From assembly GCF_003334305.1 (NCBI RefSeq), contig NZ_QOWS01000058.1: a stretch of 1,334 bases of DNA, one strand, 5' to 3'. A model generated the notes under the pieces. That model was not told the DNA's origin. It searched no databases and was given only the letters and a program-made list of their open reading frames with translations. The position numbers were made by a program, and so were the translations under genes. Shown here piece by piece: positions 1-1,334 of this stretch. Each line of letters opens with the position of its first letter. The first letter of the stretch is position 1. This DNA comes from Escherichia coli. Lineage in GTDB: Bacteria > Pseudomonadota > Gammaproteobacteria > Enterobacterales > Enterobacteriaceae.

Positions 1-1334
1 CCGGACGGGCTTCGCAGCAGCCGGGAGTATGATGAGAAGGGAAGGCTGACGGCGGAGACCTCGCGCAGCGGTGAGACAACGCGGTACAGCTATGATGACC
101 CGGCGAGTGAGCTGCCGACAGGGATACAGGACGCGACGGGCAGTACAAAACAGATGGCATGGAGCCGTTACGGTCAACTGCTGGCCTTCACGGACTGCTC
201 GGGGTACACGACGCGGTATGAGTACGACCGGTACGGTCAACAAATCGCCGTTCACCGGGAGGAAGGCATCAGCACTTACAGCAGTTATAACCCGCGTGGG
301 CAACTGGTCAGTCAGAAGGATGCGCAGGGGCGGGAGACCCGTTATGAGTACAGTGCCGCAGGCGACCTGACAGCAACGATATCACCGGACGGTAAACGCA
401 GCACCATCGAATATGATAAACGCGGGCGTCCGGTGAGTGTGACGGAAGGCGGTCTTACGCGCAGCATGGGGTATGACGCTGCCGGGCGCATCACCGTGCT
501 GACCAACGAGAACGGCAGCCAGTCCACGTTCCGGTATGACCCGGTGGACAGGCTGACTGAACAGCGCGGTTTTGACGGCCGGACGCAACGTTACCACTAT
601 GACCTGACCGGAAAACTCACGCAGAGTGAAGACGAGGGGCTTATCACCCTCTGGCACTACGATGCGTCGGACCGCATCACGCACCGGACGGTGAACGGCG
701 ACCCGGCAGAGCAGTGGCAGTATGATGAGCACGGGTGGTTAACCACCCTCAGCCATACCTGTGAAGGCCACCGCGTGTCGGTCCACTACGGCTATGACGA
801 TAAAGGCCGCCTGACGGGTGAACGGCAGACGGTGGAGAACCCGGAGACAGGGGAGATGCTGTGGGAGCATGAGACGGGGCATGCGTACAGCGAACAGGGG
901 CTGGCGACCCGTCAGGAGCCGGACGGTCTGCCGCCGGTGGAGTGGCTGACGTATGGCAGCGGTTATCTTGCGGGGATGAAGCTGGGCGGAACGCCGCTGG
1001 TCGAGTACACGCGGGACCGGCTGCACCGCGAGACGGCCCGTAGCTTCGGCGGGGCGGGCAGTACAGCGGGGTACGAACAGGCCACGGCGTACACCCTCAC
1101 AGGGCAGCTACAGAGCAGGCACCTGAACCTTCCGCAGCTTGACTGTGACTATACGTGGAACGATAACGGACAACTGGTGCGCATCAGCGGCCCGCAGGAG
1201 TGCCGGGAGTACCGTTACAGCGGCACGGGAAGGCTGACGGGCGTCCACACTACGGCAGCGAACCTGGATATCGATATCCCGTATGCGACGGACCCGGCAG
1301 GAAACCGGCTGCCGGACCCGGAACTGCACCCGGA
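1..1334 (+). CDS. Rhs-family YD-repeat protein, conserved core region (internal fragment; 5' and 3' ends lie outside the window); polymorphic toxin / T6SS-associated effector family
   Basis: Seen in sequence: frame +1 (codon 1 = nt 1-3) has no TAA/TAG/TGA across all 444 codons. The translation contains at least 10 canonical YD-repeat units (consensus roughly Y-D-x-x-G-R-L-T/I) at about 21-residue spacing, plus several degenerate ones, and GC-rich codon usage (ctg, ccg, gcg, acg, cgc, ggc). Established knowledge: this pattern is diagnostic of the Rhs / YD-repeat family, and from memory the translation is clearly homologous to, but not identical with, E. coli K-12 RhsA-type core sequence. The specific paralog cannot be assigned without a database search, so no gene symbol is given. 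Confidence 0.95.
25..831 (+). repeat. Protein-level tandem YD-repeat array within the Rhs core (about 21 codons / 63 nt per unit; degenerate at DNA level)
   Basis: Y of the YD (or YD-like) motif falls at codons 10, 31, 57 (degenerate RYGQL), 75, 96 (degenerate YNPRGQL), 117 (YS), 138, 158, 179, 200, 220, 241 and 265, i.e. nt 28, 91, 169, 223, 286, 349, 412, 472, 535, 598, 658, 721 and 793. Spacing is 20-24 codons between canonical units. Two further units lie at codons 384-392 (YTWNDNGQL, nt 1150-1176) and 404-413 (YRYSGTGRLT, nt 1210-1239). Confidence 0.8.

Follow-up and report, generated by a model that had tools for sequence, protein, structure and literature searches.

In Rhs polymorphic toxins, the Rhs shell encapsulates the toxin and two aspartyl autocleavages take place (PMC8636562). 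The Rhs1 protein of Photorhabdus laumondii combines a YD-repeat shell, an Rhs-associated core and two aspartyl-protease motifs of the DPxGL type placed before the toxin, the ADP-ribosyltransferase Tre23; vgrG is present in its locus and an immunity-like open reading frame (ORF) lies downstream (PMC8636562). In Pseudomonas aeruginosa, the C-terminal region of VgrG2b is an HExxH metallopeptidase that is delivered by a type VI secretion system (T6SS), is toxic in the periplasm and is countered by PA0261, encoded downstream (PMC6899460). Some Rhs proteins of Escherichia coli, the Rhs-MPTase4 effectors (PF15640; STEC004, EDL933 RhsG), also carry a zinc-metallopeptidase tip accompanied by a small immunity gene. 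The DNA analysed here is a stretch of 1,334 nucleotides (nt) of E. coli contig NZ_QOWS01000058.1 (assembly GCF_003334305.1), which is referred to at its full length as the window. The window makes up the middle third of the conserved core in an Rhs polymorphic-toxin gene of E. coli, one that belongs to the RhsG/H core subfamily. Overall, we give a probability of about 0.9 to the reading that it belongs to an Rhs toxin gene with an RhsG/H core and a predicted zincin tip, followed by the small gene dsORF-h1 as immunity candidate and acting through the T6SS.

A preliminary description made from the letters of the window had proposed a core-only Rhs fragment that ends inside the core, and the profile matches bear this out. 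Frame +1 of the + strand is open across all 1334 bases (444 codons, no stop) and its translation terminates in ...YATDPAGNRLPDPELHP. This translation matches the NCBIfam profile NF041261, RHS_core, at positions 488-931 of 1261 (E 2.3e-274). Because it spans these positions only, the window alone scores 913.5 bits for a curated cut-off of 2000 bits. The complete gene of one of the genomes described below (L001, 7528-11787) reaches 2649.3 bits over positions 1-1261. The YD repeats are recognized by TIGR01643 (YD_repeat, YD_repeat_2x; E 2.8e-36) in five stretches of the window translation, and by Pfam as nine PF05593 RHS_repeat units, eight of them at E <= 1e-3. These matches are far beyond chance. 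Both the N-terminal domain and the end of the gene with the Rhs-associated core and DPxGL motif lie outside the window, which is therefore internal to the core. The features are the following.

1..1334, + strand: internal Rhs core (YD-repeat shell) coding sequence (CDS) fragment in frame +1, residues 492-935 of WP_053266815.1.
28..825, + strand: eight partly overlapping RHS/YD repeats (Pfam PF05593; TIGR01643, 5 stretches); the PF05593 matches cover window residues 10-49, 55-89, 96-132, 138-173, 158-195, 179-208, 200-233 and 241-275.
1156..1257, + strand: ninth RHS/YD repeat, window residues 386-419 (PF05593, independent E-value (i-E) 4.6e-4).

The remainder of the window is unremarkable. Its G+C content is 0.59-0.70 throughout. 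The longest ORF in any other frame of either strand is 116 aa, and such minus-strand or off-frame ORFs were rejected as unsupported. A scan of the window against Rfam at E <= 1 matched zero families, and a search of the window for inverted repeats found none. Its short direct repeats merely reflect the YD periodicity.

The window was compared by megablast to 5426 complete E. coli genomes. At least 30 complete chromosomes contain it with 100% identity along its entire 1334 nt, and all of those listed annotate the matching gene as 'RHS element core protein'. At lower stringency, 560 records match at >= 99% identity and 1654 at 90-95%, while some match is found in 3712 genomes with a median of 3 paralogues per genome. 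The sequence of the window is thus already known and annotated in many genomes, and in itself it is not novel. Its best match in the genomes of K-12-like strains and BL21 is rhsD (77.6-77.7% identity), and its identity to the RhsE-type paralogue at the same locus is 77.5%. Since the identity to the rhsD and RhsE-type cores is only about 78%, which fits a separate subfamily, the window is assigned by sequence to the third E. coli core subfamily, RhsG/H, from which no difference was found in the window. Its core DNA is close to that of other G/H cores and departs by about 20% or more from the RhsA-C/F and RhsD/E cores. The RhsG/RhsH core subfamily was reportedly recognized by Wang, Zhao and Hill in 1998. 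In agreement, the ORF downstream of the 100%-identical genes is named 'RHS element protein dsORF-h1' by RefSeq. The three core subfamilies are summarised by Jackson et al. (PMC2935791), and a label 'RhsH' for the gene would have the RefSeq product name and the text of this review as its basis.

Six genomes that carry the 100% identical window were inspected over the whole locus (L001 to L006). In L001, the window occupies positions 9001-10334 inside a CDS of 4263 nt (7528-11790) that codes for a protein of 1420 aa (WP_053266815.1). The N-terminus of this protein reads MSGKPAARQGD and is followed by a DUF6531 domain at residues 49-126 (Pfam, E 3e-19). Towards the other end, the Rhs-associated core TIGR03696 covers residues 1183-1260 and the Pfam family RHS PF03527 is matched with an E-value of 2e-14. 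The motif RYITQDPIGL, in which R stands for the first residue of the classical PxxxxDPxGL, places DPIGL at residues 1234-1238, i.e. 298 codons beyond the end of the window. A second DPxGL-type motif, IDSLGL, ends at residue 1260 and the last 160 residues (1261-1420) constitute the C-terminal tip. At the junction of core and tip, about L001 11200-11500, the G+C content drops from ~0.61-0.65 to 0.34-0.41. A 3260-nt probe, drawn from the window start to where dsORF-h1 ends, reaches a coverage of 80% or more in 978 genomes, and all other Rhs paralogues stop matching at probe positions 2236-2307, which is this same junction. The tip and dsORF-h1 alone were found in 1083 genomes; this is roughly one in five of the complete E. 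coli genomes.

The preliminary description had expected the demarcating motif several hundred codons past the window, then a variable tip and a small ORF, and all three are found there in the identical-window genomes. It had also considered that a downstream stop or frameshift, or the lack of a C-terminal extension, would speak against this architecture. Downstream of the window, the six genomes are free of an early stop or frameshift and all have the extension, so that the architecture stands there; upstream of the window, a frameshift is present in three of the six. Over the stretch that starts with the window and extends through dsORF-h1, the six loci differ by at most 2 single-nucleotide polymorphisms (SNPs), with no stop and no frameshift. 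Further downstream, the orphan tip/immunity cassettes that the preliminary description had thought worth looking for are absent from all six loci.

The locus is yncG-pptA in all six genomes, with the same order of genes. Its 5' part consists of vgrG, an RhsE-type Rhs gene with a small ORF, an IS1 fragment and ISAs1. Next come a 150-aa hypothetical ORF, a 64-aa DUF3969 ORF, the Rhs gene of the window and dsORF-h1, and then an ISAs1 remnant, pptA, yddH and nhoA. The vgrG gene sits 7 kb upstream of the window-bearing Rhs gene, before the tandem RhsE-type gene. Two Rhs types can co-occur at 'position 6' according to Jackson et al. (PMC2935791), and the yncG-pptA locus is this 'RhsE/RhsH' position 6; the tandem with an RhsE-type gene agrees with their description. 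Compared to P. laumondii Rhs1, the locus shares the YD-repeat shell, the Rhs-associated core, the two DPxGL-type motifs before the toxin, the presence of vgrG and the immunity-like downstream ORF, but it is devoid of an EagR chaperone gene and the protein of a predicted N-terminal transmembrane region. The toxins are unrelated, Tre23 being an ADP-ribosyltransferase whereas the E. coli tip is a predicted HExxH peptidase.

The tip carries the motif HEFAH at Rhs residue 1344, which provides an HExxH zinc site on a predicted zincin fold. An exhaustive HMMER search of 1.84 billion representative sequences recovered 611 relatives of the tip at E <= 1e-3, most of which are the C-termini of proteins of widely differing length (up to 2805 residues). 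In an alignment of 48 relatives, L82, H84, E85 and H88 of the tip are invariant, and W59, A79, E115, E123, A127, E132, R135 and H138 are near-invariant. Peptidase_M91 (PF14891) is matched at E <= 1e-3 by 29 of these 48 relatives, with a best value of 3.7e-10. On account of the HExxH motif, the conserved positions and the M91 matches of its relatives, the tip is predicted to be a compact M91-like metallopeptidase domain with a zincin fold. The closest structural relatives of the tip model are the botulinum neurotoxin (BoNT) light chains, GtgA and 4lgj.

Several families of metallopeptidases can be compared to the tip. Peptidase family M91, whose prototype is the type III effector NleD, has in common with it the HExxH motif and the predicted zincin fold, and most tip relatives match the family. 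Unlike NleD, the tip is fused to an Rhs shell and is not type III secreted, and the signal-bearing small ORF beside it points to an antibacterial role in the periplasm rather than to the cutting of the host's mitogen-activated protein (MAP) kinases. The botulinum and tetanus light chains (M27) count ~400-430 residues versus 160 for the tip and share 10-19% identity with it (sequence search E 0.7); the tip would correspond to their zincin core only, without the substrate-wrapping belts and exosites. The Rhs-MPTase4 effectors of E. coli are alike in that they, too, are Rhs proteins whose tip is a zinc metallopeptidase and which come with a small immunity gene. Because PF15640 is unmatched even at E <= 10, by the tip as by its 48 relatives, membership in Tox-MPTase4 was rejected and the tip is placed in another metallopeptidase family. 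Membership in DUF4157, the family of the VgrG2b type (PDB 6H56), was rejected as well since neither sequence similarity nor a strong fold similarity was found.

The gene dsORF-h1 (450 nt, 149 aa) starts 11 nt past the Rhs stop codon in all six genomes. The protein begins with MMKYLMVLLSLFSGSVLG, a hydrophobic segment with a mean Kyte-Doolittle score of 1.7-1.9, and contains four Cys residues. A Pfam search of dsORF-h1 returned no family, and a word-index search found its close homologues only in E. coli and Shigella. A more distant homologue was found through synteny with a distant tip. In this genome (L009, GCA_025072235.1), an Rhs tip shares 36% identity with the present one; the ORF after it, which overlaps it, is 38% identical to dsORF-h1 and has a signal-like N-terminus too. 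Because the 36% tip directly precedes the 38% ORF, the tip and dsORF-h1 co-diverge in synteny, as a cognate pair would. Two other genomes with distant tip relatives, L010 and L012, offer no usable downstream gene, the next gene being convergent in L010 and no ORF being present before a resolvase gene in L012. Presumptively, dsORF-h1 is thus the candidate immunity protein of the tip. In L009, the homologue of dsORF-h1 is itself followed (2509-4009) by an orphan Rhs C-terminal fragment with DPIGL, a different tip and a small ORF with a lipoprotein-like N-terminus, MEMLGKILAAIISMLIISC; the whole forms a classical orphan array.

From these elements, a mode of action can be proposed. The YD repeats, including those of the window, would build a beta-shell around the C-terminal tip, and the N-terminal KPAAR/DUF6531 region would mount the Rhs protein on VgrG for delivery by the T6SS. 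After delivery, aspartyl autocleavage at the DPxGL-type motifs, by analogy with the systems described above, would free the tip. The latter would then, as a zinc-dependent protease, cleave a protein of the target cell's periplasm or envelope, and an exported dsORF-h1 would neutralise it in the periplasm of sibling cells. The action proposed for the tip and dsORF-h1 is comparable to that of the VgrG2b C-terminal domain and PA0261 (PMC6899460). It is because of this analogy and of the putative export of the immunity candidate that the tip is proposed to act in the periplasm. We consider that cleavage of a periplasmic or envelope target by the tip, blocked by dsORF-h1 in the sibling periplasm, has slightly better than even odds of being correct. 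A broader proposal is more tentative and somewhat short of even odds, namely that a miniature tip resembling a botulinum light chain, together with a dsORF-h1 bearing a Sec signal, represents an uncharacterised class of periplasmic proteolytic T6SS toxins spread over several phyla on Rhs and other polymorphic-toxin scaffolds, with delivery possibly switched by a homopolymeric A8/A7 run in the Rhs gene.

Several observations weigh against this reading of the gene. A Pfam scan did not detect a PAAR motif in the Rhs N-terminus. The match of the tip itself to Peptidase_M91 is marginal (i-E 0.021 within the C-terminal 485 aa and 0.002 for the 160-aa domain). A sequence search of the PDB with the tip gave nothing significant, and Foldseek against the PDB gave zero matches at E <= 1e-3. 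For dsORF-h1, the N-terminus resembles a signal peptide by hydropathy only, and the AlphaFold2 model, built from a shallow alignment of 8 sequences, is unusable (predicted local distance difference test 48). A 2024 preprint that mentions such a tip assumes a cytoplasmic target. Core alleles that are truncated or fused to VgrG are found at the yafT-yafV locus with 99.7-99.9% identity, and the upstream A7 allele present in three of the six identical-window genomes may mean that delivery is lost in the source strain. Given the copies at this second locus, the window alone therefore reveals neither the locus nor the intactness of its gene.

The alternative that survives best starts from these last points. 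It holds that the source of the window is a gene copy that has been pseudogenised or rearranged, i.e. the A7 allele, the 5'-truncated core of yafT-yafV or a VgrG::Rhs fusion, the core being a relic that holds the tip/immunity module. We regard it as possible but doubtful. The A8 homopolymer lies at L001 7641-7648 (CCT AAA AAA AAG, codons 39-41, PKKK), ~1350 nt upstream of the window. In L002, L003 and L006 the run is A7, and this 1-nt deletion causes a frameshift that leaves the gene pseudogenised or split and annotated as 'frameshifted'. An intact protein of 1420 aa is nevertheless encoded in the other three identical-window genomes. Over all genomes, 528 of 578 records match a 72-nt probe over the A run exactly, and 49 of 578 carry one difference from it. 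The latter include AP021914 and MJ-T, which carry the 100%-identical window and whose single differences count for the alternative. Truncated and fused copies exist at 99.7-99.9% identity, but the truncated ones inspected are not 100% identical in the window, and no lesion exists within the window itself. A further point in favour comes from the 2024 preprint, in which the M91-tipped Rhs gene of the Shiga toxin-producing E. coli (STEC) O22:H8 strain 154, located downstream of vgrG and a second Rhs gene, is split by a premature stop. The arrangement in strain 154, likened by description only, looks like that of yncG-pptA.

The A7 genomes also have an upstream SNP mosaic in common. Because of this shared mosaic, the A7 allele looks inherited and not a sequencing error. 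In the 1.2 kb of core that precede the window (L001 7750-8991), strains differ by dense clustered SNPs (~30-45 differences), whereas the stretch that begins with the window and ends with dsORF-h1 (L001 9001-12260) is almost invariant, with 0-2 differences between strains. This contrast points to exchange among Rhs paralogues, through recombination or gene conversion, and to a breakpoint close to where the window starts.

The yafT-yafV/fadE T6SS cluster is the second chromosomal locus of the same core, tip and dsORF-h1, which are 99.9% identical there over 3260 nt. In strain Ec-042-T0 (L007, 5725-9251), a 5'-truncated Rhs gene abuts a tssM remnant. In RX24 (L008, 3663-6952), a deletion produced an in-frame fusion, VgrG(1-304)::Rhs(783-1420), and by BLASTP residues 305-942 of the tssI product are 100% identical to residues 783-1420 of the L001 Rhs protein. 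The corresponding junction falls in the window and is a rearrangement breakpoint seen in a single genome rather than a functional element of the window.

865..876, + strand: RX24 fusion junction, ETGH followed by AYSEQG, Rhs residue 783 (BLASTP of the L008 tssI product).

The second alternative keeps the same gene and is the main rival to a periplasmic action. Here, the tip would act in the target cell's cytoplasm or on eukaryotic host proteins, as NleD does, and dsORF-h1 would not be a periplasmic immunity protein. NleD-type effectors, the BoNT light chains, GtgA and 4lgj have cytosolic eukaryotic proteins as substrates. As Peptidase_M91 is the closest family of the tip and these proteases its closest structural relatives, such a target has to be considered, and the preprint mentioned above likewise assumes a cytoplasmic one, in bacteria. 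On the other hand, the signal-like N-terminus and conserved Cys residues of dsORF-h1 and of its 38% relative are typical of immunity to T6SS toxins that act in the periplasm, and the tight pairing of toxin and small ORF favours an antibacterial role. Moreover, another T6SS metallopeptidase toxin, the VgrG2b C-terminal domain, exerts its action in the periplasm and is matched by a cognate immunity protein (PMC6899460). It therefore seems unlikely to us that the target is cytoplasmic or eukaryotic.

Finally, the idea that the window is open by chance, or that it codes for some other YD-repeat protein, was rejected with hardly any doubt: YD repeats also occur in the shells of Tc-toxin TcC and teneurins and a weak TEN_YD-shell Pfam match lies in the C-terminal part of the gene, but the window matches RHS_core along its full length at equivalog level (E 2e-274) and shares 100% identity with annotated Rhs genes of E. 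coli that possess the whole Rhs architecture.

Other genes of the yncG-pptA locus vary between the genomes. The RhsE-type gene directly after vgrG (L001 471-4916) is annotated as frameshifted in L001 and L002. The small ORFs that follow it differ between strains: L001 has one of 74 aa, L002 has two, and L003 to L006 have dsORF-e4. Between ISAs1 and the Rhs gene of the window lie the 150-aa ORF (L001 6535-6987), whose hydrophobic N-terminus is rich in Gly and Ala, and the 64-aa 'DUF3969 family' ORF (7253-7447, TTG start). The 150-aa ORF had zero Pfam matches. This pair of ORFs may be the remnant of an orphan toxin/immunity module or of an H-rpt-associated ORF. Nothing significant came out when the tip, dsORF-h1 and three small ORFs nearby were scanned with PADLOC and PHROGs, and an NCBIfam scan assigned no family to any small ORF of the locus. 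A promoter and terminator scan of the gene region found no more sites than in shuffled sequences.

The preliminary description had allowed for an undescribed toxin/immunity pair at this locus, and on this point it has to be amended. The pair formed by the tip and dsORF-h1 is known in silico, with annotations in some 1000 complete genomes of E. coli, and the 2024 preprint notes an M91-type Rhs tip. In the literature, no experimental study or published assay was found for the pair.

The window shows that the prediction drawn from Rhs architecture was right, and in itself it matters little. The tip/dsORF-h1 pair, which lies outside the window, is a reasonable target for wet-lab work. A predicted zincin tip and a putatively exported, co-diverging small protein are shared by roughly one complete E. 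coli genome in five, with hundreds of distant relatives. If the tip is indeed a protease toxin acting in the periplasm, its substrate would add a new target class to the interbacterial toxins of the T6SS.
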